Positions 3,954 through 47,940 of a DNA stretch of 64,000 nt are shown piece after piece. Each line of letters begins with the position of its first letter. The first letter of the stretch is position 1. A program made the translations under genes and the position numbers. Source of the DNA: Bacteroidales bacterium. GTDB taxonomy: Bacteria > Bacteroidota > Bacteroidia > Bacteroidales > UBA12077. The notes beneath the pieces are model-generated. The model did no database searches, was not told the DNA's origin, and worked only from the letters and a program-made list of their open reading frames with translations. The stretch is from assembly GCA_028282585.1 (NCBI GenBank), contig JANQHR010000052.1, forward strand, positions 32,001 to 96,000, written 5' to 3'.

Positions 3954-4358
3954 GTATTTAGTTATTTGTTTTTAGTTATTTAATCCTTTTTGATATTGCT
4001 TTTGTTAATCCAGTCAACATTTTTGATATTTCAATTAAATCATTTCTCAATTGTGTATAAATTAGATCATTAATATAATCTCTTCTCTTGGCAATTTCAA
4101 TACATACTACACTTTCCTTTAGATTTGCTTTTGAAATATTTAATAAATTACTTTGGGCTGTCACAAGCTCTTTCCGCAATATTTAACACAACCGAAGTTG
4201 TTGACCTTAATTAACTGACTCGCTAAACTAAATTTCTCAATTTCTGGTAATTTTTCAGTTATCCTATAAATTTCATCGATTAAAACCAGAGATTTTTGAT
4301 ATGCCTCTAATTTTTTGAAATTAAATCCACTTGTTACTAACTACTAATAACCAGAAAC
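3954..4358. repeat. Inverted 7-bp tandem-repeat arms flanking the four-helix pseudogene
   Basis: 3954-3981 gtattta gttattt gttttta gttattt; 4331-4358 ttgttac taactac taataac cagaaac (reverse-complement motif). Confidence 0.65.
3976..4333 (-). pseudogene. Frameshifted four-helix-bundle (23S rRNA IVP-like) gene
   Basis: Three frames give GFNFKKLEAYQKSLVLIDEIYRITEKLPEIEKFSLASQL / LRSTTSVVLNIAE...stop / NISKANLKESVVCIEIAKRRDYI...EISKMLTGL; no in-frame ATG start. Confidence 0.8.
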
Positions 4359-5278
4359 TAATTTACTTTGAAAGTTTCATTTCCGTTTTCAATAAAATCA
4401 ACTATTTGATTAGCTGCTGCAACACCTGCATTTATATTAGCTTCTGCAGTTTGCGCTCCCATTTTCTTAGGAGTAAAGAAAAACCTTCCTTCATATTTCC
4501 CGGTGATTTCATCTTTACAATCAGGAGCTATATCAGAAACATACCTGAAGTCTTCCCTTTCTGAGAAAACCTTTAATAGTTCTTCTTCATTAATAACTTC
4601 TTTTCTTGCAGTATTAATTAAAGTGGCTCCTTTAGGCATTTTACTTATCAGATCAAACCCAACTGATTTTTTAGTTTTTTCATTTGAAGGAATATTTAAA
4701 GATAGATACTGGCAATTTGAATATAGTTCTTCAACTGAACTTACCGGAGTAACTCCATCTTTTTTAATATGTTCATCATTTACAAATGGATCAAAGGCAA
4801 ACACTTCCATTCCAAAGCCTTTTGCAATCTCTCCTACATATCTTCCAACATTTCCATATGCATGAATACCTATCTTTTTACCACGCAATTCAGTTCCTGC
4901 TTTTCCATTATAGTTTCCACGGGCGATCATAACAGCCATCCCAATTGCTAACTCCGCAACTGCATTTGAATTTTGTCCCGGAGTGTTCATAGCTACAATA
5001 TTAGCTTTAGTACAGGCATTCAAATCAAGATTATCATAACCAGCACCAGCTCTTACAACAATTTTTAGGTTTTTCGCTGCATCAATAACTTCTTTAGTTA
5101 CTTTGTCAGAACGAACAATTAAAGCATCAACATCTTCAACGGCTTTTAGGAAATCAGCGTTATCCGTATATTTTTCCAATAAGACCAATTCGTAATTCGC
5201 TTTATCTAAAACTTCCTTAATTTGAGCTACTGCTGCCGATGCAAAGGGTTTTTCGGTTGCAACAAGAACTTTTTTCAT
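4358..5278 (-). CDS. serA: D-3-phosphoglycerate dehydrogenase
   Basis: VRAGAGYDN, NTPGQNSNAVAE, LINTAR, GAQTAEA; adjacent to serC. Confidence 0.9.
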   Translation of the reverse strand: MKKVLVATEKPFASAAVAQIKEVLDKANYELVLLEKYTDNADFLKAVEDVDALIVRSDKVTKEVIDAAKNLKIVVRAGAGYDNLDLNACTKANIVAMNTPGQNSNAVAELAIGMAVMIARGNYNGKAGTELRGKKIGIHAYGNVGRYVGEIAKGFGMEVFAFDPFVNDEHIKKDGVTPVSSVEELYSNCQYLSLNIPSNEKTKKSVGFDLISKMPKGATLINTARKEVINEEELLKVFSEREDFRYVSDIAPDCKDEITGKYEGRFFFTPKKMGAQTAEANINAGVAAANQIVDFIENGNETFKVN

Positions 5279-5352
5279 TTTGTAATAATTTTAGGTTTTA
5301 TAAAAAAGACCCAAAGCTAAATACCTTGAGTCTAATATATTAAAATTTGTTA

Positions 5353-6423
5353 TTAAGCATTTTGAGCTTCAAAATCCTTCATTGCTTGAACCAATGCCTG
5401 AACGTCTTCCATTGTAGAAGCATTGTACGTAGAAGCACGGAAACCTCCAACAGAACGGTGACCTTTAATCCCAACACAATTTCTTTCAGCAGCAAATGCT
5501 ATAAAGTCAGCTTCCTTACCTTTATACTGCTCTTCAAAAATAAAAACTATGTTCATTCTTGAACGATCTTCTTTTGCAACAGGACAGGTAAACATTTTAC
5601 TTTCATCGATTGCACCATATAATAAATCCGCTCTATCTTTTGCCAATTTCTCCATAGCTTCAACTCCACCCATTGATTTTACCCACTTCAATGTTTCTCT
5701 TACTGCAAAAATATTGAATACAGGAGGCGTATTAAACATGGAACCTTTATCAACGTGAGTACTATACTTTAACATAGTAGGAACTGGACGTTCAGCGACC
5801 TTATCCAATAATTCATTTTTAATTATAACAAAAGTTACTCCGGCAGGCCCTAAGTTTTTTTGAGCACCACCATAGATCAAATCATATTTTGCTACGTTAA
5901 CAGGACGACTTAAGAAATCAGATGACATATCAGCAATTAAAGGAGCTTTTACATCTAAATCTTCAAATATCTCAGTACCGGCAATTGTATTATTTGTTGT
6001 AATATGAACGTAATCTACATCATCAGGAATATTAAATCCTTTTGGATAATATGTAAAGTTTTTATCTTCTGATGATACAACCTCAACTTCTCCAAATAAT
6101 TTAGCTTCTTTAATCGCTTTAGTAGACCATGTACCGGTGTTAACATAAAGTGCTTTTGATTTCATGAAATTATATGGTATCATAGCAAATTGTAAACTTG
6201 CTCCGCCACCTAAAAAAAGAACAGAATATCCTTCCGGAATACTTAACACTTCCTTCATTAACTCAACTGTTTCATCCATTACCGCCTGAAATTCTTTACT
6301 TCTGTGCGAAATTTCAATTAATGATTGACCGATTCCGTTTAATTCTAAAACTGCTTCAGCTGAATTTTTTAAAAGTGGATCTGATAATTTACATGGACCA
6401 GCATTAAATATGTGCTTCCTCAT
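5353..6423 (-). CDS. serC: Phosphoserine aminotransferase
   Basis: [51 protein letters not shown]. Confidence 0.97.
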
Positions 6424-12456: not shown

Positions 12457-12637
12457 TCTTTTATAAATTGATTTTCGGTATACTCTGCTTATACTCCAAA
12501 TTGACTTAAATTGTTTAATTATAAGAAAAGTATTGTAAAAATAAAAATTTATACAGGGTTAACTAAAAACTATATCGCTTAATTTTCAATTTTCATAAAA
12601 GTTTATTTTATTGCATTAAATTAGGATTTGTTTAAAT

Positions 12638-33105: not shown

Positions 33106-33106
33106 A

Positions 33107-33567
33107 AAATGATTAAATGCATAAATGATTAAATAAAGAATCACATGAATAAAATGACAGAAAAGGAAATATTTATAGAGAATTTAAAGAAACGAACCAA
33201 AAAATTTGCTGTTGATGTTATTTTATTTTGTAATTCACTTAAGGTGTGCAAAGCTTCTGACGTTATAACTTATCAACTTGTAAAATCTGCAACATCAACT
33301 GGGGCTAATTATCGTGCAGCATGCAGAGCTAGGTCAAAAAAGGAATTTTTTAGCAAAATTTGCATTGTTGTTGAAGAGGCTGATGAATCTGAATATTGGT
33401 TAGAACTTATAAATGATACTAATTTATCGAATGATAAAAATGAATTATTAAGGCTTTATAATGAAGCAAATGAAATTACAAAGATAATGACAAAGGCGAA
33501 AAACACATCTTACGTAAGTAAAACTTAATACATTTGATAATTTTAGCATTTACTCATTTAAGCATTG
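33107..33567. repeat. Inverted 8-bp tandem-repeat arms around four-helix gene
   Basis: 33107-33138 aaatgatt aaatgcat aaatgatt aaataaag; 33528-33567 atacattt gataattt tagcattt actcattt aagcattg. Confidence 0.8.
33145..33528 (+). CDS. Four-helix-bundle protein (23S rRNA IVP/bAvd-like)
   Basis: LKKRTKKFA, QLVKSATSTGANYRAACRARS..EF..K..IV.EEADES.YWLEL. Confidence 0.92.
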   Translation: MNKMTEKEIFIENLKKRTKKFAVDVILFCNSLKVCKASDVITYQLVKSATSTGANYRAACRARSKKEFFSKICIVVEEADESEYWLELINDTNLSNDKNELLRLYNEANEITKIMTKAKNTSYVSKT

Positions 33568-33579
33568 AAACTAAAAACC

Positions 33580-33981: not shown

Positions 33982-34123
33982 TTAAATGAACCATCCAAGT
34001 ACCATTCTTTTTATAGAATTAAATAAATCACATGGATGTTACTTCGGGCTGGAAACAAGGTTTGTTGTATTCAATAATTCAGTAAATAAAAGAGATATCA
34101 ATCAAATTAATATAAAAAAGTAG

Positions 34124-35882: not shown

Positions 35883-35949
35883 TTTGCAAAAGTAAATTAG
35901 ATGAATTCTTTATACGATTATAAAATATAAACGGAATAGCTTAAATAAA

Positions 35950-36067
35950 CAAGGGTAGATGGAACATTGGATTATTGGAAATATCAATTTAAAAAATAAT
36001 CATTTAAATTGTTTATATCCATTTTTCCATCAATCCCTGTCTGCCGACAGGCAGGCAAAATTCCAAT
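35950..36067. repeat. Gene-less pair of inverted 8-bp tandem-repeat arms
   Basis: 35958-35981 gatggaac attggatt attggaaa; 36016-36067 tatccatt tttccatc aatc[20 bp]caaa attccaat; inner caatttaaa/tttaaattg stem. Confidence 0.7.
36036..36055. repeat. 20-bp REP-like imperfect palindrome
   Basis: cctgtctgccgacaggcagg; GC-rich island in AT-rich spacer, resembles short palindromes common in Bacteroidota intergenic DNA. Confidence 0.7.
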
Positions 36068-36136
36068 TTTAAATGGTATAAGGTTAAATAATAAATGAAA
36101 CTTTTATAATAGAGTTAAAATACAAATCATCAGAAA

Positions 36137-37420: not shown

Positions 37421-37426
37421 ATCCCA

Positions 37427-37902
37427 GGTTCATAGTTTAAAGTACAAAGTTTAAAAGTTTTATATTTAATGGCAGCATTTACAAAATTTGAAGATATTGA
37501 AGCTTGGAGAAAAGCTCGTGAATTATGCAAGCTTATCTTTGAAATAACTGAAAAAGACAAGTTTTCCAGAGATTTTTCTTTAAAAGACCAAATTAGAAGA
37601 TCTTCTGGTAGTGTAATGGACAATATTGCTGAAGGCTTTGAAAGAGGTGGAAGAAAAGAATTTATACAATTTCTTTTTATTTCAAAATCATCTTGTGCTG
37701 AAACAAAATCACAGTTATATCGGGCACTTGATTATAAATATATTGACAAAAATGAATTGAATAAATGGTATGAGAAAGCTTGCGAATGCACAAAACTCAT
37801 TGTTGGATTAATCAATTATCTCAAATCATCTAGTGTTAAAGGCCTAAAGTATTTATAAAATCACTTTGAAAACTTTGAACTGTAAACTTTGAACTAAGAA
37901 CT
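37427..37902. repeat. Inverted 7-bp tandem-repeat arms around four-helix gene
   Basis: 37427-37462 ggttcat agtttaa agtacaa agtttaa a agtttta; 37868-37902 gaaaact ttgaact gtaaact ttgaact aagaact. Confidence 0.82.
37469..37858 (+). CDS. Four-helix-bundle protein (23S rRNA IVP/bAvd-like)
   Basis: FEDIEAWRKAREL, LKDQIRRSSGSVMDNIAEGFER...KEFIQFL.ISK.SCAE..SQLY.A.D. Confidence 0.93.
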   Translation: MAAFTKFEDIEAWRKARELCKLIFEITEKDKFSRDFSLKDQIRRSSGSVMDNIAEGFERGGRKEFIQFLFISKSSCAETKSQLYRALDYKYIDKNELNKWYEKACECTKLIVGLINYLKSSSVKGLKYL

Positions 37903-37990
37903 ATTAAAACATTGTTAATAATTTAAAACATAATATGCTAACTTTTAATCCATAGAGCTTAATTTAGCAGTTTGTTAAAAAAATAGAAAA

Positions 37991-38419
37991 TTGGAAAAGA
38001 AACCACTAATACATAGAACTGAAATCGTTGTAAGGTTTAGTGAAGTAGATTCGATGGGAATCGTATGGCATGGTAATTATGCCAAATACTTTGAAGATGG
38101 CCGTGAAGCATTTGGGAAGGCTTTGGGCTTAAGTTACCTGGATGTTTATGCAAACAAGCACCTCACTCCTCTTGTTAAACTTGATTTTGAGTACAAAACT
38201 CCTCTTGAATATGGAGATTCAGCAATTATAGAAACAAGGTATATTGACCATGATGCTGCTAAAATTCATTTTGAATATACCATATACAACAAAAAAAATA
38301 ACAAGGTTGCTGCAACCGGAGAAAGCATTCAGGTGTTTTTAAATCTAGAAAGAGAATTGGTTTTAATTGCTCCTGATTTTTTCCTTGAATGGAAAAGAAA
38401 AATGGGACTCCTTGAATAA
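37991..38419 (+). CDS. YbgC/4HBT-like acyl-CoA thioesterase
   Basis: VRFSEVDSMGIVWHGNY..YFE.GR. Confidence 0.92.
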   Translation: MEKKPLIHRTEIVVRFSEVDSMGIVWHGNYAKYFEDGREAFGKALGLSYLDVYANKHLTPLVKLDFEYKTPLEYGDSAIIETRYIDHDAAKIHFEYTIYNKKNNKVAATGESIQVFLNLERELVLIAPDFFLEWKRKMGLLE

Positions 38420-38866
38420 TGAACATCGATTAACGAATATAGAATTAAGAAATGGCAAAGACATTGACAAAATATGATTTAGAAGAAAGACTGATTAATT
38501 TTTCAGTATTGATAATTGATATAGTTAATGAAATGCCAAATACAAAAGCAGCAAATCATCTTTCGGGACAACTTGTTCGTTCTGGTACTTCGCCCGCTCT
38601 TAATTATGGTGAAGCGCAAAGTGCAGAATCAAGAAAGGATTTCATTCATAAGATGAAGGTTATTCTTAAAGAATTAAGAGAAACATTTGTGTGTTTGAAG
38701 ATAATTCATCGATGTAAATTGTTTAAAACAGAAGAAAAAATTATAATAGCTAAAGAAGAAAATAATGAGCTTATTTCAATATTTGTAAAAAGCATCGAAA
38801 CAGCAAAAAACAATTTAAATTCCAATAAATCTTAAATCGTTAATCTGTGTTCGATGTTCGATATTC
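38414..38866. repeat. Inverted 7-bp tandem-repeat arms around four-helix gene
   Basis: 38414-38455 gaataat gaacatc gattaac gaatata gaattaa gaaatgg; 38825-38866 ataaatc ttaaatc gttaatc tgtgttc gatgttc gatattc. Confidence 0.88.
38452..38835 (+). CDS. Four-helix-bundle protein (23S rRNA IVP/bAvd-like)
   Basis: DLEERLINF, QLVRSGTSPALNYGEAQSAESRKDFIHK..V.LKELRET..L. Confidence 0.93.
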   Translation: MAKTLTKYDLEERLINFSVLIIDIVNEMPNTKAANHLSGQLVRSGTSPALNYGEAQSAESRKDFIHKMKVILKELRETFVCLKIIHRCKLFKTEEKIIIAKEENNELISIFVKSIETAKNNLNSNKS

Positions 38867-38903
38867 AAATAAGAATTGAATATGATTTAAGAAGATTAAT
38901 AAA

Positions 38904-40064
38904 ATGAATAAAATTTACACAATAGCAGACAACATAATATCATCTTTGGGCTTTACAAGCAAAGAAAACTTTGAGAACCTTAAGCAAGGCATATCTGGAA
39001 TCAAACAAACATCAGACCCTAAAATTACACAGGTTCCAATGCAATGTTCTTTAGTTAATACAGAGAAATTAAATTCGGAATTTGAAAAAATTGGAAAACC
39101 TGAAGGATATACACGCCTGGAGAAACTAATGATATTATCTATCGCAGATTGCTTAAAACAATCAGGTGTAGATTCTACAAGTGAAGACACTTTGTTTATT
39201 TTTTCATCGGTTAAAGGAAATATCGATTTAATTGAGGATGAAAACCATCCTTTTGAAGAAGACAGAATAAACCTGTGGGCAATATCTGATGCAATTTGTA
39301 ATTTCTTCAAGGCGAAAAATGAAGCAATTTTTGTATCGAATGCATGCATTTCAGGTGCCACAGCTATCATAACGGCAGCCCAATATTTATCCGCTAAAAA
39401 ATATAAAAATGCCATTGTTTGCGGTGGTGATATTATTTCTGAATTTACACCTTCTGGTTTTCAATCGTTCAAAGCAGTGAGCGAAGAGCCTTGTAAACCT
39501 TTTGATGCAAACAGGAATGGTATCACTTTAGGCGAAGGTGCTGGTACAATTATTTTAACTGCTGATAAAGATTTAGTTAAAGAAGAAAATCCAATAGTTT
39601 TCAGAGGTGGGGCAAATACAAATGATGCAAACCATATTTCAGGGCCATCGAGAACTGGAGATGGATTATATTATGCAATCAGAAATGCACTAAACCAAGC
39701 AAATAAAACCAATACTGAAATCGACTACATTTCGGGGCATGGAACGGCAACTCCATACAACGATGAAATGGAATCGAAAGCCATTTCATGGGCCGGGCTT
39801 AAACATGTTCCCGTTAATAGCCTGAAAGGCTACTGGGGGCACACTTTAGGAGCTGCAGGAATCATTGAAAGTATTGCTGGAATTCATTCTATAAAGGAAA
39901 ACTGTTTAATAAGAACGAATGGATTTTCTGAACATGGTGTTAGTGAAGCAATTAATGTAATCAATGAATTTAAGGAAACTGAAGTAAAGAATTTCTTAAA
40001 AACAGCTTCTGGTTTTGGTGGTAGTAATGCCGCAGTTTATTTTTCTGAATTAAATGCTGATTAA
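38904..40064 (+). CDS. Beta-ketoacyl synthase family protein
   Basis: SNACISG, PFD..R.G..LGEGA, SGHGTAT..ND, GHTLGAAG, SGFGG. Confidence 0.9.
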   Translation: MNKIYTIADNIISSLGFTSKENFENLKQGISGIKQTSDPKITQVPMQCSLVNTEKLNSEFEKIGKPEGYTRLEKLMILSIADCLKQSGVDSTSEDTLFIFSSVKGNIDLIEDENHPFEEDRINLWAISDAICNFFKAKNEAIFVSNACISGATAIITAAQYLSAKKYKNAIVCGGDIISEFTPSGFQSFKAVSEEPCKPFDANRNGITLGEGAGTIILTADKDLVKEENPIVFRGGANTNDANHISGPSRTGDGLYYAIRNALNQANKTNTEIDYISGHGTATPYNDEMESKAISWAGLKHVPVNSLKGYWGHTLGAAGIIESIAGIHSIKENCLIRTNGFSEHGVSEAINVINEFKETEVKNFLKTASGFGGSNAAVYFSELNAD

Positions 40065-40099
40065 TTAGAAAATTGAAAATAGAAAATTATTAGAACATT

Positions 40100-40534
40100 A
40101 TGTCTTATATTAGAATTTGGTTACATTGTGTTTGGGGAACTAAAAAGCGAATTCCTTTTCTAACAAAAGACAATAAATGGGATATTATAAACCATATTAA
40201 AGATAATGCAAAGGCAAAAGGCATTTACATAAATTTTATTAATGGAAACAAAGAGCATATTCATTGTATAATTTCGCTTAAGGCTGATGAAGCCTTATCT
40301 AAAACTATTCAATTAATTAAGGGAGAATCTTCATTTTGGATAAATAAAAACAGTTTATCAAAAGGTAAATTTGAATGGGCGGATGAATACTTTGCTGTTT
40401 CAATTAGTGAATCTCAAGTGCCTAAAGTAAGGGATTACATAAAGAATCAAGAAGAGCATCATAGCAATAAAACATGGAAAGAAGAATATGAAGAATTTAT
40501 ACAAAAGTATAATTTCGAAAAGATTAAGGGCTAA
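40100..40534 (+). mobile_element. tnpA: IS200/IS605-family (Y1 HUH, RAYT-like) transposase
   Basis: H.VWGTK.R, EHIH (HUH), IKGESS, FEW...YF..S, YIKNQ catalytic Tyr. Confidence 0.9.
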
Positions 40535-40620
40535 AGCCCTCGTTATTTTGAGGATTTATAACCCCAGCCTTAAGGCTGGGGTTAAAGAAAATACCCTTGA
40601 ATGGACTTTAGTCCCTTAAT
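40523..40620. repeat. Composite palindromic REP-like module at the transposase 3' end
   Basis: Outer inverted repeats attaagggctaaagcc / ggactttagtcccttaat enclosing perfect 26-bp palindrome taaccccagccttaaggctggggtta (40559-40584). Confidence 0.88.
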
Positions 40621-40639
40621 TTACTTAATTACCACGTTT

Positions 40640-41269
40640 ATGGAAAACATCATATCAAAATATTGCATTATACAACCGCATAAGGTTATAGTTGATGGAA
40701 AATCAGAATTAATCGATCCTGAGAAAAGCGAATTCGGAGCATTCATGAAATCCATCTATAAACATTACGATATAAAGTATCCAAAGTATTTTAAAATGGA
40801 TAACCTATGCAAGATTGCTTTTATTGCATCCGAAATTGTATTGAAAGGAAATGAACATATCAAGGAATTGGACCCTACCAAAGTAGGTGTGATTTTACAA
40901 AACTCGCATTCATCCATAGATACAGATACTAAATACAACGATACTATTAAGGATAAATCAAACTACTTTCCAAGCCCGGCAGTATTTGTTTATACCTTGC
41001 CCAACGTAATGATTGGCGAAATTTGTATTCGAAATAAGTTTCAAGGTGAAAATACCTGTTTTATAGCCAAACAATTCAACCCCGAATTTGTAACTGAATA
41101 TGTAGGCGAACTGTTAGGTTCTGGCAAGTTAGATGCTTGTATTGCCGGGTGGGCAGATTACATGGATGGAGAATACAGTTCGATGTTGTTTTTAGTTGAA
41201 AAAAATAAGGAAAATAAAAAAGATAGTATTAGTTTTAACCCCCAAATCATAAATGGATTAATTAAGTAA
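40640..41269 (+). CDS. Truncated ketosynthase-like / chain-length-factor-like protein
   Basis: YPKYFKMD.L.K, FPSPAVFVYTLPNVMIGEI.I, GEN; no catalytic Cys; ATG 40640 preferred because 40601 lies in the palindrome. Confidence 0.8.
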   Translation: MENIISKYCIIQPHKVIVDGKSELIDPEKSEFGAFMKSIYKHYDIKYPKYFKMDNLCKIAFIASEIVLKGNEHIKELDPTKVGVILQNSHSSIDTDTKYNDTIKDKSNYFPSPAVFVYTLPNVMIGEICIRNKFQGENTCFIAKQFNPEFVTEYVGELLGSGKLDACIAGWADYMDGEYSSMLFLVEKNKENKKDSISFNPQIINGLIK

Positions 41270-41275
41270 ATAGAA

Positions 41276-41530
41276 ATGGAAGAGTTAATTTTAAAGATTA
41301 AAGAACAAGTAATAGAGGTATTGAATTTAGAAGATATTGAGCCAGCAGATATTGATACAGATGCACCATTATTTGGTGATGGTTTAGGGCTTGATTCAAT
41401 TGATGCATTAGAATTGATCGTATTATTAGAAAAACAATATGGAATAAAAATCGAAGACCCAAAAGACGGAAAAAAGATTTTTTATTCAATTAGGACAATT
41501 GCTGAATACATCGAAGAAAAAAAGAAATAA
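41276..41530 (+). CDS. Acyl carrier protein (aryl-polyene type)
   Basis: APLFGDGLGLDSIDALEL. Confidence 0.93.
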   Translation: MEELILKIKEQVIEVLNLEDIEPADIDTDAPLFGDGLGLDSIDALELIVLLEKQYGIKIEDPKDGKKIFYSIRTIAEYIEEKKK

Positions 41531-41551
41531 TATTTGATAAAGGATTTGTAG

Positions 41552-42751
41552 ATGTCAAAGAGGGTATTTGTAACAGGCATAGGAATTATATCAGGAATCG
41601 GAAATAATGTAGAAGAAACACTTCAATCTCTTAAAGAGAAAAAATCCGGAGTAGAAGATATCAAGTATCTTCAAACCAACCACAAAGGTGTCATTCCTGT
41701 TTCGGAAGTAAAGTTATCTGAAGAAGAATTGATTAAAAGAGCCGGATTGCCTCAAGGTGAACCTTATACTCGATCGACTCTAATTGGTATAATTGCTGCT
41801 GACGAAGCAGTTAAAAATGCTCAGATTAATGATATCAAAGAATGTAAAACCGGATTGATATCCGGAACTACTGTTGGTGGAATGGACAAAAGCGAGCTTT
41901 ATTACAGAGACCTTTTAGAAACTACAAACCATATCGAATATATCGAAACCCACGATTGTGGTGATAGTACTGAGCGAATTGCTGATTACATTGGGATTAA
42001 GGATTTTGTTTCAACTACAAGTACTGCGTGTTCATCCGCTGCTAATTCAATGATATTAGGAGCCAGAATGATCAAAAACGGTTTACTAGACCGTTGTGTT
42101 GCAGGTGGAATCGAATCATTAACCAAATACCACATGAATGGCTTTAACACATTAATGATTCTTGACCGTGAACCGTGTAAACCTTTTGATGAAAACAGAA
42201 AAGGTTTAAACCTTGGTGAAGGAGCTGCCTTTCTGGTGTTAGAATCTGAAGAGATGGTTCAAAAATCTGGTAAAAAAGTGCTTGCTGAATTAACGGGTTA
42301 TGGAAACTCATGTGAAGCTTTCCATCAAACAGCTTCTACTCCTGAAGGTAAAGGTGCATATGCAGCCATGAAAGAAGCTTTGGAAAGAAGCGGGTTAAAG
42401 CCGGAAGATATTGATTATGTGAATGCTCATGGTACAGGAACAGATAACAATGACCTTTCAGAAGGAAGAGCTATTGAAAACATTTTTGGTAAGAATATTC
42501 CTAAGGTAAGTTCAACTAAATCGTATACCGGGCACACAACAAGTGCTGCAGGTGGTGTTGAAGCAGTTATATCAGTTCTTACCTTACAGCACAACATGAT
42601 TTTCCCGAACCTGAATTTTAAAGAGCAAATGAAAGAACTTAAATTCAAACCTGTAACTGAAGTTATAGAAAATGTTAAGGTCGACCATGTACTATCCAAT
42701 TCTTTTGGTTTCGGAGGTAATAATTCAGCGTTAATTTTCTCAAGATATTAG
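41552..42751 (+). CDS. Beta-ketoacyl-ACP synthase (aryl-polyene KS type)
   Basis: STACSSAAN, GLNLGEGAA, NAHGTGT.NND.SE, KSYTGHT, SNSFGFGGNN. Confidence 0.93.
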   Translation: MSKRVFVTGIGIISGIGNNVEETLQSLKEKKSGVEDIKYLQTNHKGVIPVSEVKLSEEELIKRAGLPQGEPYTRSTLIGIIAADEAVKNAQINDIKECKTGLISGTTVGGMDKSELYYRDLLETTNHIEYIETHDCGDSTERIADYIGIKDFVSTTSTACSSAANSMILGARMIKNGLLDRCVAGGIESLTKYHMNGFNTLMILDREPCKPFDENRKGLNLGEGAAFLVLESEEMVQKSGKKVLAELTGYGNSCEAFHQTASTPEGKGAYAAMKEALERSGLKPEDIDYVNAHGTGTDNNDLSEGRAIENIFGKNIPKVSSTKSYTGHTTSAAGGVEAVISVLTLQHNMIFPNLNFKEQMKELKFKPVTEVIENVKVDHVLSNSFGFGGNNSALIFSRY

Positions 42752-42752
42752 T

Positions 42753-43817
42753 ATGGAAGTTTACATAAAAGGCATCGGTAATATATCTCCTCAAAATACT
42801 ACAGATAGCAAAGTATTTTTAGATGAAGTTGTGAATCACGAATCTGATTTTCTTTCTTGTATTGAACCCAATTATAAAGAATTTATTAATCCCATTCAGC
42901 TTCGCCGAATGAGTAAACTGATAAAAATGGGGATCAGTGCTTCAAAAATTTGTTTGCAGGATGCTGGTGTTGAAGAACCAGGTGCAATTATTACCGGAAC
43001 AGGACTGGGGTTGGTTGGTGATACTGAAAAATTCCTGAACCAGGTTTTAGACCATAATGAGGAACTTCTTGCCCCCACTGCTTTTATTCAATCAACGCAC
43101 AATACAATTAGCGGGCAGGTTGCAATTGCCTTAAAATGCTTTAAATACAACAATACATACTCGCACCGCGGTTTTTCCTTTGAAAGTGCGCTTTTAGATG
43201 GAATGCTGTTGGTTGAAAATAAGGATGCTGGCCATGTTTTGGTTGGCGGTTTCGATGAAATCACTGGTGAACACTATAAAATCATCAAAAAAACAAAGTG
43301 GGTAAAAGATGAAACTATAAAAAGCCTTGAACTAATTGATCATAAAACGCAAGGAACCATTGTTGGCGAAAGTGTTGCTTTCTTTACGTTAACTGGTAAG
43401 AAAGATGAAAACACGTACGCAAAAATTCAAGATATTAAGACCATATATAAACCTGAAAACAACCATGAAATTGAAACTAAAATCGATGAATTCTTAGCTA
43501 AAAATAAGCTAAAAAAGCAAGATATTGATTTGGTGGTTTTAGGTTTAAATGGAAACGTTGACACTGATGATGTTTACCTTCATCTAGCAGATAACTATTT
43601 CAATACAAATTATGCTTATTTCAAGCACCTTTCCGGTGATTACCACACGGTTGGTTCATTTGCATTATGGTTTGCTGCAAATTCAATTAAACATCAGAAT
43701 GTACCAGAAGTAGCTCGTTTCAGAAAAGAAAACTTTACTGAAAAACCAATAAAAAACGTATTGGTATACAATCATTTTAGAAAAGTTGACCATTCAATAT
43801 TTTTATTAACTCAATGA
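42753..43817 (+). CDS. Ketosynthase chain-length factor
   Basis: LRRMS, GTGLG, PTAFIQSTHNT, SFE.ALLD; lacks catalytic Cys; adjacent to KS. Confidence 0.85.
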   Translation: MEVYIKGIGNISPQNTTDSKVFLDEVVNHESDFLSCIEPNYKEFINPIQLRRMSKLIKMGISASKICLQDAGVEEPGAIITGTGLGLVGDTEKFLNQVLDHNEELLAPTAFIQSTHNTISGQVAIALKCFKYNNTYSHRGFSFESALLDGMLLVENKDAGHVLVGGFDEITGEHYKIIKKTKWVKDETIKSLELIDHKTQGTIVGESVAFFTLTGKKDENTYAKIQDIKTIYKPENNHEIETKIDEFLAKNKLKKQDIDLVVLGLNGNVDTDDVYLHLADNYFNTNYAYFKHLSGDYHTVGSFALWFAANSIKHQNVPEVARFRKENFTEKPIKNVLVYNHFRKVDHSIFLLTQ

Positions 43818-44575
43818 TCAAACCAAGAACTACATTCGTTCTTTACATCATTGTTTTAATCCTGGTTTATCTCTTTCTTCCATGGAAAGGGATATTTTTT
43901 ACTCTATTAACAGTCTTATTTTTAGCTCATTTAGTTTATTGCTCGGTAAATATTTGCTCTCAAGCTTACATTAAAACCTTTTGCAAACGCGATACACAAG
44001 AAAAAAAGATAGCCATCACTTTTGATGATGGGCCGGATTCAGAAATTACTCCGAAGGTTTTAGAGATATTAGACGAGTTCGCTGTAAAAGCTACTTTCTT
44101 TTGTATCGGAAATCAAATCGAACGCAATAGAGATATCTTAAAAGCGTTAGATTCAAAAGGGCATTTAATTGGTAATCATAGCTATTCGCACGAGTTTTGG
44201 TTCGATTTATACCCGGCAAATAAGATGCAAGAAGATATTAAAAAAACAAATGGACTGATTTTTGAAACAATTGGTAAAAAAACGAAGCTGTTCCGCCCTC
44301 CTTATGGTGTTACAAACCCTTCTTTAAAGAAAGCTATTAAGGATTTAGGTTTTAATACTATTGGATGGAGCATACGTTCTTTAGATACTGTAAGCAAAAC
44401 TGAAAAAACTATTCAACGAATTAAGAAAAAATTATCACCGGGAGATATGATATTATTTCATGATAACAGAGAACAAATAATTCTAATCTTAAAAGAGTTT
44501 ATAGATTATACCAAATCCGAAGGATATGAGATTGTTCCTCTCGACGAATTATTAAATATACAAGCTTATGAATAA
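43814..44575 (+). CDS. Polysaccharide deacetylase family protein
   Basis: TFDDGP, ATFF, GNHSYSH, FRPPYG, ILFHD. Confidence 0.92.
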   Translation: MIKPRTTFVLYIIVLILVYLFLPWKGIFFTLLTVLFLAHLVYCSVNICSQAYIKTFCKRDTQEKKIAITFDDGPDSEITPKVLEILDEFAVKATFFCIGNQIERNRDILKALDSKGHLIGNHSYSHEFWFDLYPANKMQEDIKKTNGLIFETIGKKTKLFRPPYGVTNPSLKKAIKDLGFNTIGWSIRSLDTVSKTEKTIQRIKKKLSPGDMILFHDNREQIILILKEFIDYTKSEGYEIVPLDELLNIQAYE

Positions 44576-45206
44576 GATATTAAGTACTATAATCAGCCTC
44601 TTTTTATTTATTACCATTTTAAATGCTCAGGAAAATGGATTTTCTAAGGTTAAGGATATGGAAAAAACGAAGTCGGATTTATCAAAATTAACAGAAAACA
44701 CTTCAGCCATAAAGAGTCAATTTGTACAGGAAAAACATCTAAGTTTTTTAACTGAGAATATAAGGTCAAAAGGTGAATTTTACTTCAAAAGCCCTAATTC
44801 GCTTCGTTGGGAATATTCAGAGCCATTCGAATATATTATCGTATTCAATGATAAAAATATTATGATTAAAGATGGTGCTAAAATCAGCACATATGATACT
44901 GAATCAAACAAAATGTTTAGCGAAATCAATAATATGATGATTGGTACTATTCAGGGCAATTTATTTACAGATAACGAACGGTTTGATGTAGAATATTTTG
45001 AAAATGCTTCTCAATATTTGCTTGAACTGGATCCCAAATTACCTGAAATGAAAAGTATGCTGAAAACAATCAAAATATTCATTGATAAATCAGATATTTC
45101 AGTGGCTAAAATTAAAATGATTGAAAGTTCAGATGATTATACCAGTATTGAATTCATAAACAGAAAACTGAACCAGGAAATAAAAGAATCCATCTTTAAA
45201 CTATAA
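44568..45206 (+). CDS. LolA-like lipoprotein/lipid carrier
   Basis: Signal peptide, F.QEK.L, S.G.FYFK.P..LRWEY..P. Confidence 0.88.
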   Translation: MNKILSTIISLFLFITILNAQENGFSKVKDMEKTKSDLSKLTENTSAIKSQFVQEKHLSFLTENIRSKGEFYFKSPNSLRWEYSEPFEYIIVFNDKNIMIKDGAKISTYDTESNKMFSEINNMMIGTIQGNLFTDNERFDVEYFENASQYLLELDPKLPEMKSMLKTIKIFIDKSDISVAKIKMIESSDDYTSIEFINRKLNQEIKESIFKL

Positions 45207-45224
45207 CTATTTTACTTTTTAATA

Positions 45225-45914
45225 ATGAATATTGAACACCGAACACCGAATCTAGAAATAAAACAAATCTTTCGTATTTCGTCATTCATAATTCGATATT
45301 CGGTATTTCTAATTATTGTATTTCTATCAAGTTGTGCCAATCCCCATAAAAATCTGCCAAGTACTGAATTAAGAGTATCAGAAATTAAAAATATCCCTTA
45401 TGCCCTTCCTTATACCGATAAAGCAATCATATACAAAACAGATATCAGCTTTTATAAAAATGATATTAGTGGATTATTGATCATTAAAAGAACAGACGAA
45501 AATGTATATCGTATTGCTTTAACCACCCAATTCGGCTTAAAGATATTTGATTTTGAATTGAACCATGGAGAACTCAAGGTAAAGTATTGTGTTGAATATT
45601 TAAATAAAAAAGTAATCCTAAACACATTTGAAACAGATTTCAACCTGCTTTTATTGCAAAACAAATTTGATAGCATACAAAGAATACAAAACCAGAAACA
45701 AAATCAAACTATCTGGCAATTAAAATCGGGCAAATTAAACTACAACTATATAGAGGATGTAAATTCGCAAAATGTTGTACGCATTAGCTTTAAGAAGAGA
45801 AATTCTGAAAAAATTTCAGTAGGTTTGTATGCGTACCGAGGTGATATTCCAGGAGAAATAAAGTTGGAGCATCACAACATAAAACTAAAAATGGATTTAA
45901 AATTGATTCAATAA
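45225..45914 (+). CDS. Hypothetical lipoprotein
   Basis: Lipobox LSSC at residues 34-37; SGLLIIK, FGLKIFDF. Confidence 0.75.
   Translation: MNIEHRTPNLEIKQIFRISSFIIRYSVFLIIVFLSSCANPHKNLPSTELRVSEIKNIPYALPYTDKAIIYKTDISFYKNDISGLLIIKRTDENVYRIALTTQFGLKIFDFELNHGELKVKYCVEYLNKKVILNTFETDFNLLLLQNKFDSIQRIQNQKQNQTIWQLKSGKLNYNYIEDVNSQNVVRISFKKRNSEKISVGLYAYRGDIPGEIKLEHHNIKLKMDLKLIQ
45227..45308. repeat. Gene-less pair of inverted 7-bp tandem-repeat arms inside the 5' end of the lipoprotein CDS
   Basis: 45227-45261 gaatatt gaacacc gaacacc gaatcta gaaataa; 45267-45308 atctttc gtatttc gtcattc ataattc gatattc ggtattt. Confidence 0.82.
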
Positions 45915-46288
45915 TGCTTTTAAAAGATTTTTATACCCTTGCTGAATTAGATAAAAGTGATCAAGAAAACTTCAAAGCCATCATCGATCTAAATAAGGAT
46001 CATGAAGTATACAAGGGCCATTTTCCAGGCAATCCTGTTGTTCCGGGCGTTTGCTTAACGCAATTGATAAAGGAAATCATGGAGACTGCTGAAAACAAAG
46101 AATTGAACCTTGTTTATGCCGATAATATCAAATTTATGTCAGTTGTAAATCCTGAGGTAAACAGCAGGCTTCAGATCGACTTGAAAGTAAAATACGATGA
46201 CGAACAAAACCTAATTAAGGTAAATAGTGTTACTCATTTTAACGATCAGGTTTTTTACAAATTTAAAGGTAACTTTAGGGCAAAGTAA
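45914..46288 (+). CDS. FabZ-like 3-hydroxyacyl-ACP dehydratase
   Basis: H.VY.GHFPGNPVVPGVC, IKF...VNP. Confidence 0.9.
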   Translation: MLLKDFYTLAELDKSDQENFKAIIDLNKDHEVYKGHFPGNPVVPGVCLTQLIKEIMETAENKELNLVYADNIKFMSVVNPEVNSRLQIDLKVKYDDEQNLIKVNSVTHFNDQVFYKFKGNFRAK

Positions 46289-46300
46289 AATTTTTGGGGA

Positions 46301-47509
46301 ATGGATTTGGAAAAGTACCGCGAGATATTTAGGGAGAAAAAGTGCTGTGTAATTATACCCACTTATAATAATGATCAAACCATTGAAAAAGTTGTTTCTG
46401 ATGTGTTGAAATATACCAATCAGGTTATTGTTGTTAACGATGGATCAACAGACCAAACAGGCGATATTTTAAGCAAGATCAGTGAAGTTGATGTTGCAAG
46501 TTATCCTAAAAACAAAGGAAAAGGGTACGCTTTAAAAACCGGCTTTAAATATGCATGGAAAAGTGGTTATGAATATGCAATCACCATTGATTCCGACGGG
46601 CAACATTTTGCTTCGGATTTGCCAAAATTTGTAGAAGCCATTAATGAAAATCCAAATTCCATTATAATTGGAAATAGAAATATGGAACAGGATGGTATTC
46701 CTGGGAAAAGTAGTTTTGGAAACCGCTTTTCCAATTTCTGGTTTAAGTTCGAAACTGGAATTTCAATGCCTGATACCCAATCAGGATACAGGCTTTATCC
46801 TTTAAAGCCATTGAGTAAAATGCGCTTGTTCACCAATAAATACGAATTAGAAATAGAAGTTATCGTAAGAGCAGCCTGGAGAGGTGTTGACGTAACTCAT
46901 CTTCCAATTCAAATTTATTATGCCCCGAAAGAAACAAGAGTTTCTCATTTTAAACCTTTCATAGATTTTACAAGAATAAGTATTTTGAATACGATTTTGG
47001 TTATTTATGCATTGCTAGTTGCTAAGCCCTTTGCTTTTGTTAAGAAATTAAATAAAAAGAATATCCAGGAATTCTTTAGAGATCAAATATTACAAAATAA
47101 GGAACCAAATATCAAGATTACATTTGCCATTATGCTTGGTTTGTTTATGGGTGTTGCACCAGTGTGGGGATACCAGATGCTGATTGCTTTTGCTTTAGCG
47201 CATATTCTAAAATTGAATAAAGTGATTGTATTAGTTGCTTCTAATATCAGCATCCCTCCTATGATTCCGATTGTACTTTTTGCCAGTTTTAAAACAGGAG
47301 GATTTTTTGTTGAAGCCAATAAGCTTAACCTGCGCTTTGATTCAAGTATTAGTCTGGATTTAATTAAGGACAACCTAACTCAATATGTTGTTGGTAGTCT
47401 AGTATTTGGAATTTTACTAGCTTTAACCTTTGGTATTGTTACTTATATTTTACTTCTTATCTTTCGGAAAAAACCGGTATTACAAAAAGAGTATGTTAAA
47501 TTAGATTAA
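46301..47509 (+). CDS. GT2 glycosyltransferase fused to DUF2062-like membrane domain
   Basis: IIPTYNN, VNDGSTD, NKGKG, IDSDGQH, DTQSGYRLYP; hydrophobic C-terminus. Confidence 0.9.
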   Translation: MDLEKYREIFREKKCCVIIPTYNNDQTIEKVVSDVLKYTNQVIVVNDGSTDQTGDILSKISEVDVASYPKNKGKGYALKTGFKYAWKSGYEYAITIDSDGQHFASDLPKFVEAINENPNSIIIGNRNMEQDGIPGKSSFGNRFSNFWFKFETGISMPDTQSGYRLYPLKPLSKMRLFTNKYELEIEVIVRAAWRGVDVTHLPIQIYYAPKETRVSHFKPFIDFTRISILNTILVIYALLVAKPFAFVKKLNKKNIQEFFRDQILQNKEPNIKITFAIMLGLFMGVAPVWGYQMLIAFALAHILKLNKVIVLVASNISIPPMIPIVLFASFKTGGFFVEANKLNLRFDSSISLDLIKDNLTQYVVGSLVFGILLALTFGIVTYILLLIFRKKPVLQKEYVKLD

Positions 47510-47940
47510 GTACTTAAAGTGATCTAAAGTTTATAAGTGTCTAAAGTTATATGAATAATAAAGAGTTTAGCCAAAAATTAGAAACCAGAACCAAAGAATT
47601 TGCTAAAAGCATTATTAAACTCTCGGCAAGTCTCGAAAAATCATCAGAAAATAATGTAATTAAAAATCAAGTTACAAAATCAGGAACAAGTATTGGTGCA
47701 AATTATAGAGAAGCAAACCGGTCAAGAAGTCGAGCTGATTTTACGAATAAAATTAAAATTTGTGAAAGCGAAGCAAATGAAACCGTATACTGGTTAGAAA
47801 TTATATCAGAAATGAATCTAGTAAAACTCGAAATAATCAGGCCAATTTTGATGGAAGCAAGAGAAATACTTGCTATTTTTACAACTATTAGCAAAAATGT
47901 TAAACTTAAGGCATTTTAGGCACTTTTAATTTTAGGCAAT
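47506..47940. repeat. Inverted ~9-bp tandem-repeat arms around four-helix gene
   Basis: 47506-47548 ttaagtact taaagtgatc taaagttt ataagtgtc taaagtt; 47903-47940 aacttaagg cattttagg cactttta attttagg caat. Confidence 0.75.
47551..47919 (+). CDS. Four-helix-bundle protein (23S rRNA IVP/bAvd-like)
   Basis: LETRTKEFA, QVTKSGTSIGANYREANRSRSRADF..K..I...EA.ET.YWLE. Confidence 0.93.
   Translation: MNNKEFSQKLETRTKEFAKSIIKLSASLEKSSENNVIKNQVTKSGTSIGANYREANRSRSRADFTNKIKICESEANETVYWLEIISEMNLVKLEIIRPILMEAREILAIFTTISKNVKLKAF

Follow-up and report, generated by a model that had tools for sequence, protein, structure and literature searches.

Five small genes of the IVP family (PF05635/TIGR02436), one of them broken, lie between genes of operons in the window, a stretch of 64,000 nucleotides from a Bacteroidales genome (G000) of 32% G+C, and each is flanked on one side by short tandem repeats and on the other by their reverse complement. 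Is this bracketing more than the weak complementarity expected of AT-rich DNA? Or, if it is real, are the arms the ends of a mobile element, parts of the operon transcript, or hairpins in which the genes are only passengers? A first-pass annotation made from the sequence alone had described the genes, their orientation and their inverted arms, and PF05635 matches, a check of orientation, sequence reading and RNAduplex predictions bear it out (Table 1).

All five genes have the same orientation as both neighbours. Of the two pieces of the broken gene, 4209-4316 corresponds to PF05635 model positions 1-36 and 3976-4179 to positions 58-106, the latter with 33.3 bits, narrowly missing the cut-off of 33.8. 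IVP37469 has PDB relatives with five chains in the crystal (2GSC, 2RLD). The repeat unit, put at 7-9 bp by the annotation, is mostly 7 nt long and sometimes 8-9. Two further arm pairs enclose no gene, as had been claimed, and both are predicted to fold as hairpins. The first is directly followed by a separate GC-rich hairpin (36038-36058); the second covers the first ~28 codons of an ORF (45225-45914) whose conserved part begins at about residue 27 in relatives.

Table 1. IVP cassettes and gene-less hairpins of the window, with the basis of each assignment
Feature	Position	Strand	Basis and remarks
Broken cassette, 3' arm	3945..3975	-	Complement-type units; reverse complement of the units at 4334-4357
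Broken PF05635 gene, two frames (3976-4179, 4209-4316)	3976..4333	-	Pfam pieces
Broken cassette, 5' arm	4334..4357	-	TTAGTNN-type units on minus strand; sequence reading
IVP33145 5' arm	33107..33134	+	TRF period 8, AAATGATT-type units; duplex
IVP33145 gene, 127 aa	33145..33528	+	PF05635 E 6.3e-14, TIGR02436 E 2.4e-23
IVP33145 3' arm	33531..33569	+	TRF period 8; duplex -20.1 kcal/mol
Gene-less hairpin, TGGANNN-type arms, within 254-nt intergenic insert	35953..36037	+	Fold
IVP37469 5' arm	37427..37463	+	NNNAGTT units; duplex -28.1 kcal/mol
IVP37469 gene, 129 aa	37469..37858	+	PF05635 E 3.9e-34
IVP37469 3' arm	37862..37907	+	TRF period 7 (37871-37907); duplex
IVP38452 5' arm	38411..38437	+	Overlaps upstream thioesterase stop codon; duplex -25.8 kcal/mol
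IVP38452 gene, 127 aa	38452..38835	+	PF05635 E 6.7e-12
IVP38452 3' arm	38836..38868	+	Sequence reading; duplex
Gene-less hairpin, arms like those of IVP38452	45227..45308	+	Fold
IVP47551 5' arm	47508..47548	+	CTAAAGT-type units; sequence reading, duplex
IVP47551 gene, 122 aa	47551..47919	+	PF05635 E 3.9e-19
IVP47551 3' arm	47905..47945	+	Overlaps stop codon; duplex -16.9 kcal/mol

The simplest explanation would be that the arms are chance complementarity of AT-rich intergenic DNA, ordinary terminators or an attribute of DGR accessory genes. At this base composition weak complementarity is indeed common: when the 60-nt 5' flank was paired with the 3' flank by RNAduplex, 3468 other crude ORFs of the same genome gave quantiles of -18.9 (5%) and -22.9 kcal/mol (1%). 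Thirteen IVP ORFs nevertheless differ in duplex energy from 1818 controls, which are the output of a crude ORF caller (Mann-Whitney p = 0.0015). The comparison with control genes that the annotation had proposed was also run across phyla, with 81 IVP cassettes at 76 loci and 98 neighbour genes as controls, and the cassettes exceed the controls in both flank complementarity and periodicity. The median Smith-Waterman score of the 5' flank against the reverse-complemented 3' flank is 25 for cassettes and 14 for controls; 57/81 cassettes score higher than the 95th percentile of the controls (p = 5e-17; p-values here overstate, the orthologs in the set being non-independent) and 24/81 do not. A tandem period of 7 fits best in 50/81 cassettes on the 5' side and 52/81 on the 3' side, with a flat distribution in controls. 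In minimum free energy folds of whole cassette transcripts, long-range pairs between the flanks have a median of 21, with at least 10 pairs in 78/109, compared with a median of 3 and at least 10 pairs in 16 of 100 control small ORFs. The pattern is also seen in GC-rich phyla, for example at Gemmataceae and Pyrinomonadaceae loci, and chance complementarity is rejected by the RNAduplex, Smith-Waterman/period and folding controls alike. Ordinary terminators are rejected as well, with none of 18 terminator-like sites in 32500-48500 coinciding with an arm, as are DGR accessory genes, no reverse transcriptase having been found in G000; Rfam has no family at the arms. This group of explanations can be set aside as extremely improbable. 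The bracketing of IVP genes by inverted arrays is confirmed as real and far beyond chance, and the layout is general across many bacterial phyla.

Arms have a median length of 26 nt, the 5' arm ending 24 nt before the ATG and the 3' arm starting 9 nt past the stop codon. The AG core of the units exceeded a phase-permutation null in 200/200 trials, and G outnumbers C within the 5' arm in 50/57 cassettes; an inverted repeat is identical on both strands, so this G-first handedness carries no information on gene orientation. Both neighbours are co-oriented with the gene in 101/104 evaluable cassettes, with gaps of ~52 nt. Among the 24 cassettes that do not exceed the control threshold are deviating layouts, namely a single array in a Flavobacterium group of 7 and the order A-A'-gene-A' at two loci (L062, L071).

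The annotation had also suggested gain and loss of the cassettes, and comparison of orthologous operons, run as it had proposed, shows that they are not fixed: at four window junctions, relatives in the genus are filled, hold a gene-less hairpin or a remnant, or are bare (0-22 nt). The IVP33145 junction is bare (0-16 nt) in 13/24 genus loci, carries a frameshifted ortholog at the same place in G045, and has spacers of 37-121 nt, mostly holding array remnants, at 9 further loci. Junction 35882->36137 measures 9-13 nt in 18/21 genus genomes; its gene-less form is an insert of ~250 nt, more than a simple arm pair, and inserts of that length also occur in G002 and G024. Orthologs of IVP37469 (77-78% identity) are present only in G024 and G016 among 20 genus loci with both flanking genes. 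IVP38452 is present in G000 alone among 19 genus loci holding the junction, and is a recent insertion. At the IVP47551 junction, 17/24 loci with both flanking genes have a bare spacer of 5-21 nt, G045 and G017 have gene-less hairpins, G110 has another ORF (132 aa), and G015 has a cassette with a GxxExxY gene (TIGR04256), so that one junction has received two cargo families. Cassettes are thus gained and lost between related species. Residence can also be long, since in 44/70 cases (5.7 expected) the best protein match comes from the same genomic context, and IVP identity follows flanking-gene identity (rho 0.58, 0.60, 0.20 and 0.22).

The arms move with the gene. Paralogs of IVP38452 share 67-76% identity and have homologous arms, which indicates that gene and arms were copied as one unit; the same arm family flanks the paralogs C91:68001 and C4:12165 and forms a gene-less hairpin at C131:2220-2304. 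At orthologous sites, arms are wholly different between taxa and each pair is still ~82% complementary. The three IVP37469 orthologs have different arms with duplexes of -28, -28 and -39 kcal/mol, the own-pair arm score in an 18-locus context group is 31.5 against 15.2 for cross-pairs, and own-pair exceeds cross-pair in 48/69 overall (Wilcoxon p = 6.5e-7). The life history of a cassette thus comprises insertion, copying as a unit, a long stay and sporadic loss, and its arms are under a constraint to keep pairing through full sequence turnover, with a predicted transcript stem of ~21 bp.

At which level does this constraint act? Selection for pairing in the sense RNA alone would be expected to leave an excess of G.U-compatible mismatches on the sense strand, and none was seen in a first count (16 vs 22) or in a second (76 vs 78, beside 167 transversions). 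This speaks against a purely RNA-level reading, and concerted evolution of the arms in DNA fits equally well or better. The inverted arrays could be transposon-like ends or cruciform sites for insertion, excision or repair of DNA, their complementarity kept by template switching or hairpin-templated correction and by slippage, with RNA pairing as a by-product. The turnover with pairing kept, the copying of gene and arms together and the repeated occupation of the same junctions by different cassettes all agree with this, as does the concentration of period-7 arrays in intergenic DNA (45 vs 11 coding, intergenic DNA making up only 13% of the genome); work cited in the available portions of PMC4679880 and PMC4692102 ascribes heptamer excess to polymerase slippage. 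However, no target-site duplication, recombinase, transposase or integrase was identified for the cassettes and no reverse transcriptase in G000, and the near-absolute co-orientation and the tight packing point to reliance on read-through transcription. The placement of arms within ~10-25 nt of start and stop codons also speaks against a DNA-level element. We consider this DNA-level account unlikely.

Hairpins of this kind are not confined to IVP genes. The two top-scoring neighbour "controls" proved to be GxxExxY cassettes, whose arms are analogous and built of 8-10-nt units with a CRCARAG-type core, where IVP units have period 7 and an AG core. The annotation had seen no paired arms at the other gene junctions it read, in agreement with the controls, but such arms do occur at GxxExxY genes and in gene-less hairpins elsewhere in the genome. 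Filled heptamer hairpins are far outnumbered by gene-less ones. Among 80 loci with CCCCAGT arrays, 31 have an inverted partner and only 1 has an IVP ORF, and G000 itself holds many gene-less hairpins, with arm families shared with a resident IVP subfamily.

Might the hairpin then have come first? STRR-like heptamer hairpins would be independent and widespread, and IVP and GxxExxY genes would land or survive best in their loops, as intervening sequences (IVSs) do in rRNA helix loops. The numbers just given suit such a view, as do the matching handedness of the CCCCAGT-array hairpins (25 G-first vs 5 C-first), the hairpins that relatives of filled alleles carry at the same junction, and the gene-free heptamer inverted pairs described, in the available portions of the reports, in Xanthomonas (PMC4692102) and the cyanobacterial hupS-hupL interval (PMC2670836). 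Against it, homologous arms surround paralogous genes at different loci, the unit type follows the cargo family, and the gene-less hairpins at the IVP37469 site occur in species nested among carriers of an old ortholog, for which loss is a better fit than an ancestral hairpin. We regard passenger genes in pre-existing hairpins as quite unlikely; the empty pairs are plausibly post-deletion or non-autonomous forms, as the annotation had proposed.

In another proposal, the ring-shaped cargo protein would bind the G-rich 5' array, (N5AG)n, at multiple sites, which would resemble those of TRAP and HutP. Binding would compete with stem formation and autoregulate the cassette, and cognate gene-less hairpins elsewhere would come under its control in trans. 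Across phyla the units conserve the AG core and vary freely at their remaining positions, each arm has 3-6 units for a protein that crystallises as five chains and is described as a homopentameric toroid in the available part of PMC4990558, and G-first handedness means that the AG array is transcribed ahead of its partner; the cargo-specific units and the arm families shared by hairpins and resident subfamily also fit. Yet arm and protein similarity are uncorrelated overall (rho 0.009, 7084 cross-context pairs), an enrichment in the top tail being confounded by orthology; the window arms of IVP33145 and IVP38452 have no clear AG core; and the Coxiella S23p protein is probably not made in vivo, according to the same portion of PMC4990558. 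A binding-site role for the arrays appears a slim prospect.

Our best reading, which we give about an even chance, is that these are IVS-type stem-loop gene cassettes residing in operon junctions and their transcripts. Each would consist of a small gene without a promoter, here one of the IVP family of pentamer-forming four-helix bundles, with an array of short tandem units on either side, the two arrays being inverted relative to each other; in IVP cassettes the units are AG-core heptamers and the G-rich array is 5' on either strand. It enters between co-directional genes, spreads to further junctions with its arms, and can persist for long, with sporadic loss or decay leaving a gene-less hairpin, array remnants or a bare junction. 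In the read-through transcript the inserted ORF would be looped out by pairing of the arms, so that the host operon may tolerate the insert. The predicted stem would have the size of a double-stranded RNase III substrate, like that of the 23S rRNA IVSs of the same family, and G000 encodes RNase III; the cassette's own mRNA may also be released or controlled. As the unit type differs from one cargo family to the other, the cargo protein may recognise its own repeats. The annotation's view of IVS-like operon cassettes is partly upheld. The anatomy, an ORF looped within a stem of roughly 20-28 bp that terminal inverted repeats form, matches the Coxiella IVS as described in the available part of PMC4990558, and the operon setting (the 101/104 count above), the varying alleles and the joint copying of arms and gene agree with it, while the missing G.U excess speaks against a purely RNA-level reading.

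Small intergenic inverted-repeat elements that fold in transcripts include Correia elements, REP/BIME and MITEs, and Correia hairpins are RNase III substrates. The ends of these elements are conserved in sequence and have no tandem-unit arms, and MITEs are gene-free. An integron cassette is likewise a promoterless ORF, its site defined by structure rather than sequence, but both attC halves lie at one end and an integrase is required; no integrase is linked to the IVP cassettes.

The Avd protein of DGRs has a homologous four-helix-bundle fold and pentameric assembly, and no family is found near DGR reverse transcriptases more often than PF05635, according to the available part of PMC10053308. 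The IVP cassettes differ in being single genes within unrelated operons, without template or variable repeats and in a genome with no reverse transcriptase found.

Known relatives in gene content are the 23S rRNA IVSs of Coxiella, Leptospira and others. In the portion of PMC4990558 available, these carry an ORF of the same family (PF05635, "S23p") in the loop of a terminal-inverted-repeat stem of ~20-28 bp, which in Coxiella is 28 bp long and cut by RNase III; they are co-transcribed with the host RNA, sporadic, and obscure in origin and mobility. The cassettes differ in lying between protein-coding genes rather than in an rRNA helix and probably also in their arms of ~7-nt tandem units, and RNase III cleavage, established for IVSs, is proposed for them by analogy. 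In the one complete genome of the genus, the 23S genes measure 2866 nt and lack an IVS.

The heptamer hairpins themselves are already in the literature, without explanation: cyanobacterial STRR, Xanthomonas GGGAATC pairs, Geobacter heptanucleotide paired sites and Beggiatoaceae TAACTGA. In the available portions of the reports (PMC2670836, PMC4692102, PMC2700814, PMC4679880) they are intergenic 7-nt tandems, often in convergent inverted pairs with the potential to fold into hairpins where genes are co-transcribed; their length differs among relatives, and they are stated to have no known function. Those portions describe no enclosed gene and mention neither PF05635 nor GxxExxY. No report linking heptamer hairpins to either family was found in the literature. 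The first-pass annotation had overlooked the published hairpins (STRR, the Xanthomonas pairs), along with the span across phyla and the sharing with GxxExxY genes. What sets the cassette arrays apart from the repeats as published is that they enclose genes of one particular family and move together with them, and this recurrent layout may tie together three hitherto unexplained features of bacterial genomes.

The source genome (G000) is a 4.89-Mb draft of 173 contigs, with 31.9% G+C and an estimated completeness of 98%. It contains 20 matches to PF05635, the four-helix-bundle family referred to here as IVP, of which 16 are above the cut-off and several have internal stops. Four intact IVP genes and one broken copy are present in the window. 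The intact genes match the family profile significantly over their full length and all exceed the curated cut-offs of both Pfam (PF05635) and NCBIfam (TIGR02436). Every window IVP gene sits between co-oriented ORFs, and direct reading of the flanks reveals degenerate short tandem units 5' of the gene and their reverse complements 3' of it, an arrangement of a small gene between two arms that we call a cassette. The duplex energies of the four pairs of flanks are given in the table; among 3468 other crude ORFs of G000 the 5% and 1% quantiles were -18.9 and -22.9 kcal/mol. The 13 IVP ORFs recovered by our own ORF caller in G000 likewise differ in flank duplex energy from 1818 controls (Mann-Whitney p = 0.0015). 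The first-pass annotation had described co-oriented IVP genes bracketed by inverted short-unit arms, and this is confirmed by Pfam, NCBIfam, the reading of the flanks and the comparison of RNAduplex energies with controls. The two arm pairs that it reported without an enclosed gene also exist, and both fold into hairpins.

Features of the window and of related loci (window coordinates unless a genome or contig is named; energies are RNAduplex values for 60-nt flanks)
Feature	Position	Strand	Junction	Energy (kcal/mol)	Remarks
Gene run	30-52 kb	+			includes FabA-like and ApeI-like dehydratases
Broken IVP gene	3976-4333	-			two frames; PF05635 match in two pieces
IVP33145	start 33145		33105-33565	-20.1	intact
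IVP37469	start 37469		37420-37991	-28.1	intact
IVP38452	start 38452		38419-38904	-25.8	intact
IVP47551	start 47551		47509-47946	-16.9	intact
Gene-less hairpin	35953-36037		35882-36137
Gene-less hairpin	45227-45308		45206-45225
Lipoprotein-like ORF	45225-45914
GC-rich palindrome	36038-36058; G000 C4 ~12545-12575				beside heptamer arms
Cobalamin riboswitch RF00174	60122-60387	-			73.3 bits; upstream of minus-strand gene 57858-60035
IVP gene cluster	G046:C122:41491-51294				four genes within 10 kb
IVP gene cluster	G020:C3:86184-90118				three genes within 4 kb
GxxExxY matches	G076:C1:1297252; G080:C9:91044; G092:C22:338277				inside 883-aa open frames; may be fusions

Several known identities can be set aside. 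Intergenic inverted repeats might be intrinsic terminators, which have a short GC-rich stem with a T run behind it; 18 sites in 32500-48500 look like terminators, and no arm coincides with any of them. Nor are the arms a known RNA family: no Rfam match was found at them, the sole hit being the cobalamin riboswitch. Avd binds nucleic acid and is encoded beside the reverse transcriptase of a diversity-generating retroelement (DGR) that has template and variable repeats, and IVP genes might be given a DGR Avd role; this is rejected because no reverse transcriptase (PF00078) was found in the 98% complete genome and because the neighbours of the window cassettes are lipid-biosynthesis-type genes.

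The arms would have consequences for annotation, as they overlap stop and start codons and a hairpin can be mistaken for N-terminal coding sequence. The lipoprotein-like ORF at 45225 has its only ATG upstream of the hairpin, so that the hairpin would account for some 28 codons at the annotated N-terminus; in comparison with relatives, conservation sets in near residue 27. A short GC-rich palindrome (ctgcc..gacaggcagg type) is found beside heptamer arms at the two G000 sites in the table and at loci L206 and L171. It recurs at several unrelated junctions in G000 and its relatives and looks like a separate small repeated element.

The same architecture extends far beyond this genome. All 25 genus genomes searched have PF05635 genes, 1-16 in each, and the same arm layout is present at thirty loci drawn from them. 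A pattern scan that took one genome per species provided a wider sample of 80 loci from Bacteroidota and from records titled Ignavibacteriae, Clostridia, Planctomycetota, Gemmataceae, Pyrinomonadaceae, Fibrobacteres, SAR324, Dehalococcoidia, Anaerolineaceae, Thermodesulfovibrio, Desulfosarcina and Atribacterota. When 5' flanks were compared with reverse-complemented 3' flanks, the median score was 25 for 81 IVP ORFs at 76 loci, against 14 for 98 neighbouring genes at the same loci, and 57 of the 81 exceeded the control 95th percentile (p = 5e-17). A tandem period of 7 fitted best in 50 of the 81 5' flanks and 52 of the 3' flanks, and one of 8 in a further 17 and 16; the controls were flat. The periodic, complementary flanks seen in the window are a general pattern of IVP genes. 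Minimum free energy (MFE) folds of whole cassette transcripts are closed by a stem whose long-range pairs number 21 in the median, and at least 10 in 78 of 109, whereas control ORFs of 100-150 aa folded in the same way have a median of 3, and at least 10 in 16 of 100. Chance is rejected as an explanation by these flank-score and fold controls together with the RNAduplex comparison. In 101 of the 104 cassettes that could be evaluated, the genes on both sides are co-oriented with the IVP gene; about 52 nt separate it from either neighbour. An earlier control in the genus sample, which used mismatched arm pairs, gave medians of 24 for own pairs and 18 for mismatched pairs, with 13 of 41 above the control 95th percentile; it separated poorly. 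Many genus cassettes are orthologous or belong to common arm families, and neighbour-gene controls were used instead.

IVP genes may also be clustered (table). At L058, L060, L064 and L100, loci from four different taxa, one gene is flanked on both sides by IVP cassettes, and these two junctions correspond to context groups, sets of cassettes sharing both flanking genes, of 18 and 9 loci. At L062 and L071 the order is array, loop, complementary array, IVP gene and second complementary array, which would allow two alternative pairings.

Fifty-seven cassettes with clear arms were used to describe the units. The median arm length is 26 nt; the distance from the end of the 5' arm to the start codon is 24 nt, and that from the stop codon to the 3' arm is 9 nt. 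G exceeds C in the 5' arm of 50 cassettes, C exceeds G in 5, and the two are equal in 2. Because an inverted repeat looks the same from either strand, the G-first rule describes the handedness of the hairpin and not the orientation of the gene. When heptamers are placed in register, A (0.82-0.84) and G (0.82-0.86) dominate two neighbouring positions and the remaining five are nearly free. This AG core exceeds a phase-column-permutation null in 200 of 200 trials.

Are the cassettes fixed in their operons? The first-pass annotation had suggested their gain and loss, and alignment of orthologous junctions among genus relatives indeed found filled, gene-less, remnant and bare alleles, a bare junction being a short spacer with neither gene nor hairpin. 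The IVP37469 ortholog (77-78% identity) is present in only two relatives (G024 and G016) among 20 genus loci with both flanking genes. Three species have tandem-unit gene-less hairpins at the same spot, and the remaining loci have 22-264 nt with no ORF; in all cases the spacer is conserved in its distal part. IVP38452 is found at its junction in G000 only. Its closest paralogs in G000 (67-76% identity) have homologous arms at unrelated loci, and the same arm family also occurs as gene-less hairpins on contig C131 and at window 45227; gene and arms have been copied as one unit. At the IVP33145 junction, 24 loci were examined, of which G000 has the cassette and G045 a frameshifted ortholog; spacers are 0-16 nt in 13 and 37-121 nt, mostly with array remnants, in 9.

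Junctions are also reused by different cassettes. The IVP47551 junction has a cassette of the second cargo family, GxxExxY (TIGR04256), with its own arm type in G015, and gene-less hairpins of the GxxExxY unit type in G045 and G017. Other spacers of 59-211 nt occur at three loci, and the spacer measures 5-21 nt at 17 of the 24 loci where both flanking genes are present. The ortholog of this junction in G110 (L174) contains a 132-aa ORF without a match to our own IVP or GxxExxY profiles, which may be a third cargo type. At the junction of the first gene-less hairpin, 18 of 21 genomes have 9-13 nt, and in the other three an insert of some 250 nt contains a heptamer hairpin. The junction of the second has three different palindromic inserts among relatives. 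At six of its orthologs (L166, L168, L171, L172, L173 and L187) there is an insert of about 100 nt with two C5/G5-rich hairpins, a third kind of palindromic intergenic element in the genus. At the IVP37469 junction of G020 (L019), an insert of about 170 nt with a long internal palindrome is flanked by a direct duplication of some 9-12 nt of the spacer and is MITE-like. A transposon or MITE with terminal inverted repeats would have a target-site duplication and a cognate transposase; no such duplication was apparent when filled and bare junctions were compared by eye. To our knowledge, neither the IVP nor the GxxExxY proteins are transposases.

Other cassettes have persisted. Groups of cassettes that share both flanking genes span families, the largest having 18 and 12 loci. 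The best IVP protein hit shares the genomic context of the query in 44 of 70 cases, where 5.7 would be expected, and IVP identity tracks flanking-gene identity (rho 0.58, 0.60, 0.20 and 0.22). Many cassettes have thus long resided at their junctions and evolve faster than the genes beside them. In the 18-locus group the own-pair arm score is 31.5, compared with 15.2 for 5' against 3' arms of different members and 17.4 for 5' against 5' arms. Overall, own exceeds cross score in 48 of 69 (p = 6.5e-7, with orthologs among them, so that these are not independent). Since arms that otherwise share nothing still match their own partners, complementarity is maintained while the arm sequence turns over. 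Across contexts, arm similarity is uncorrelated with protein similarity (rho 0.009, 7084 pairs); an enrichment in the top tail is confounded by unrecognised orthology and was excluded as evidence.

The GxxExxY cassettes came to light among the controls. In G000 the controls with the strongest flank pairing proved to be a pair of small genes on contig C118 that belong to this family (E 9.5e-39) and are flanked by GC-richer inverted arrays; the two top cross-phylum controls, at one Pyrinomonadaceae and one Planctomycetota locus, were also GxxExxY. The family is present in 38 of 61 genomes of the phylum. Of the 29 cassettes with flanks, 13 score at least 20 (control 95th percentile 19.15). Their best periods are mostly 8-10 and their units, of CRCARAG type, are alike across genomes, so unit type follows cargo family. 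Gene-less hairpins with GxxExxY units at L170, L182 and L167 have the complement-type arm first, the opposite handedness to filled GxxExxY cassettes.

Do the arms act in RNA or in DNA? The first-pass annotation had them pair into a stem enclosing the ORF. The stem is predicted in the MFE folds, but the mismatch spectrum holds no sense-RNA signal. G.U-compatible mismatches and opposite transitions number 16 and 22 in the genus sample and 76 and 78 in the wide sample, the latter with 167 transversions and 1472 matches; the lack of the G.U-compatible excess that selection for pairing in the sense transcript should produce speaks against a purely RNA-level constraint, or at least gives no support for one. 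Strict co-orientation and the placing of the arms relative to the start and stop codons suggest that the cassettes depend on read-through transcription, and an RNase III gene is present in G000. We infer that the stem would work in the operon transcript in the manner of rRNA intervening sequences (IVS), a reading that analogy and context support and the mismatch spectrum does not.

Heptamer-repeat hairpins are over-represented in bacterial genomes, and intergenic heptamer arrays with convergent pairs are known from several bacteria: cyanobacterial STRR hairpins between hupS and hupL (PMC2670836), inverted GGGAATC pairs, of which two Xanthomonas genomes have 70 and 75 (PMC4692102), paired heptanucleotide sites in Geobacter (PMC2700814) and TAACTGA repeats (PMC4679880). 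Their role is called unclear in PMC4692102 and PMC2670836. The cassettes share with STRR the intergenic tandem repeats with units of about 7 nt and the convergent inverted pairs able to form a hairpin. Period-7 arrays in G000 are intergenic in 45 cases and coding in 11. A genome-wide search for partners of 181 TRF arrays within 900 nt found 38 inverted and 29 direct at scores of at least 24, which is not discriminating, and served only to list candidates. STRR units reportedly go back to Mazel in 1990. Metagenome contigs scanned for three copies of the STRR unit CCCCAGT gave 80 loci. In 31 of these an inverted partner lies within 8-323 nt of the array (25 G-first, 5 C-first, 1 both), and a single locus has an IVP ORF by our own HMMs. 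Heptamer arrays therefore do not predict a gene, and gene-less hairpins are the majority form, with the same handedness.

These likenesses could be united in one pan-bacterial cassette class comprising heptamer hairpins, ORF-bearing rRNA IVS and the multi-copy "four helix bundle" and GxxExxY genes, in which the cargo recognises its own units, the arrays form a stem in transcripts and gene-less hairpins are non-autonomous or decayed forms. As a whole we hold this to be rather unlikely. Within such a class the units may be N5AG for the pentameric IVP and CRCARAG-type for the nuclease-fold GxxExxY, the inverted-array stem may let a cassette ride inside host transcripts, and gene-less hairpins are possibly still under trans control by resident cargo proteins. 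That cargo proteins bind their own units is speculative, as is the derivation of gene-less heptamer hairpins from cassettes or their service as trans-targets. A search mainly of the main texts of open-access papers found none that connects inverted tandem-repeat arms with PF05635/TIGR02436 or GxxExxY genes outside rRNA, which does not allow a firm claim of novelty. If the link between gene and arms holds, it would provide the first functional context for two very large uncharacterised families, TIGR02436 and TIGR04256, and hundreds of natural filled, empty and bare alleles, with Flavobacterium, Bacteroides and Pedobacter as cultivable hosts for work on processing, binding and mobility.

The closest known system is the rRNA IVS. 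That of Coxiella is 428 nt long; RNase III cuts its 28-bp terminal stem, and an S23p ORF lies in the loop (PMC4990558). This source calls the origin, mobility and function of IVS and of the S23p/IVP ORF unclear. IVS lie inside an rRNA gene, where they replace the loop of helix 9, 25 or 45, whereas the window cassettes are all between protein-coding ORFs. The two 23S genes of relative G008 are 2866 nt long, match the full-length model and have no IVS; no 23S match was found in G042 or G003, and none is assembled in G000. The PDB relatives 2GSC (XCC0516) and 2RLD have five chains each. Like IVS, the cassettes have terminal inverted repeats that would form an enclosing stem, as predicted by folding. 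If the link between gene and arms holds, IVS would be no more than a special case, resident in rRNA, within a far larger population of cassettes that reside in operons.
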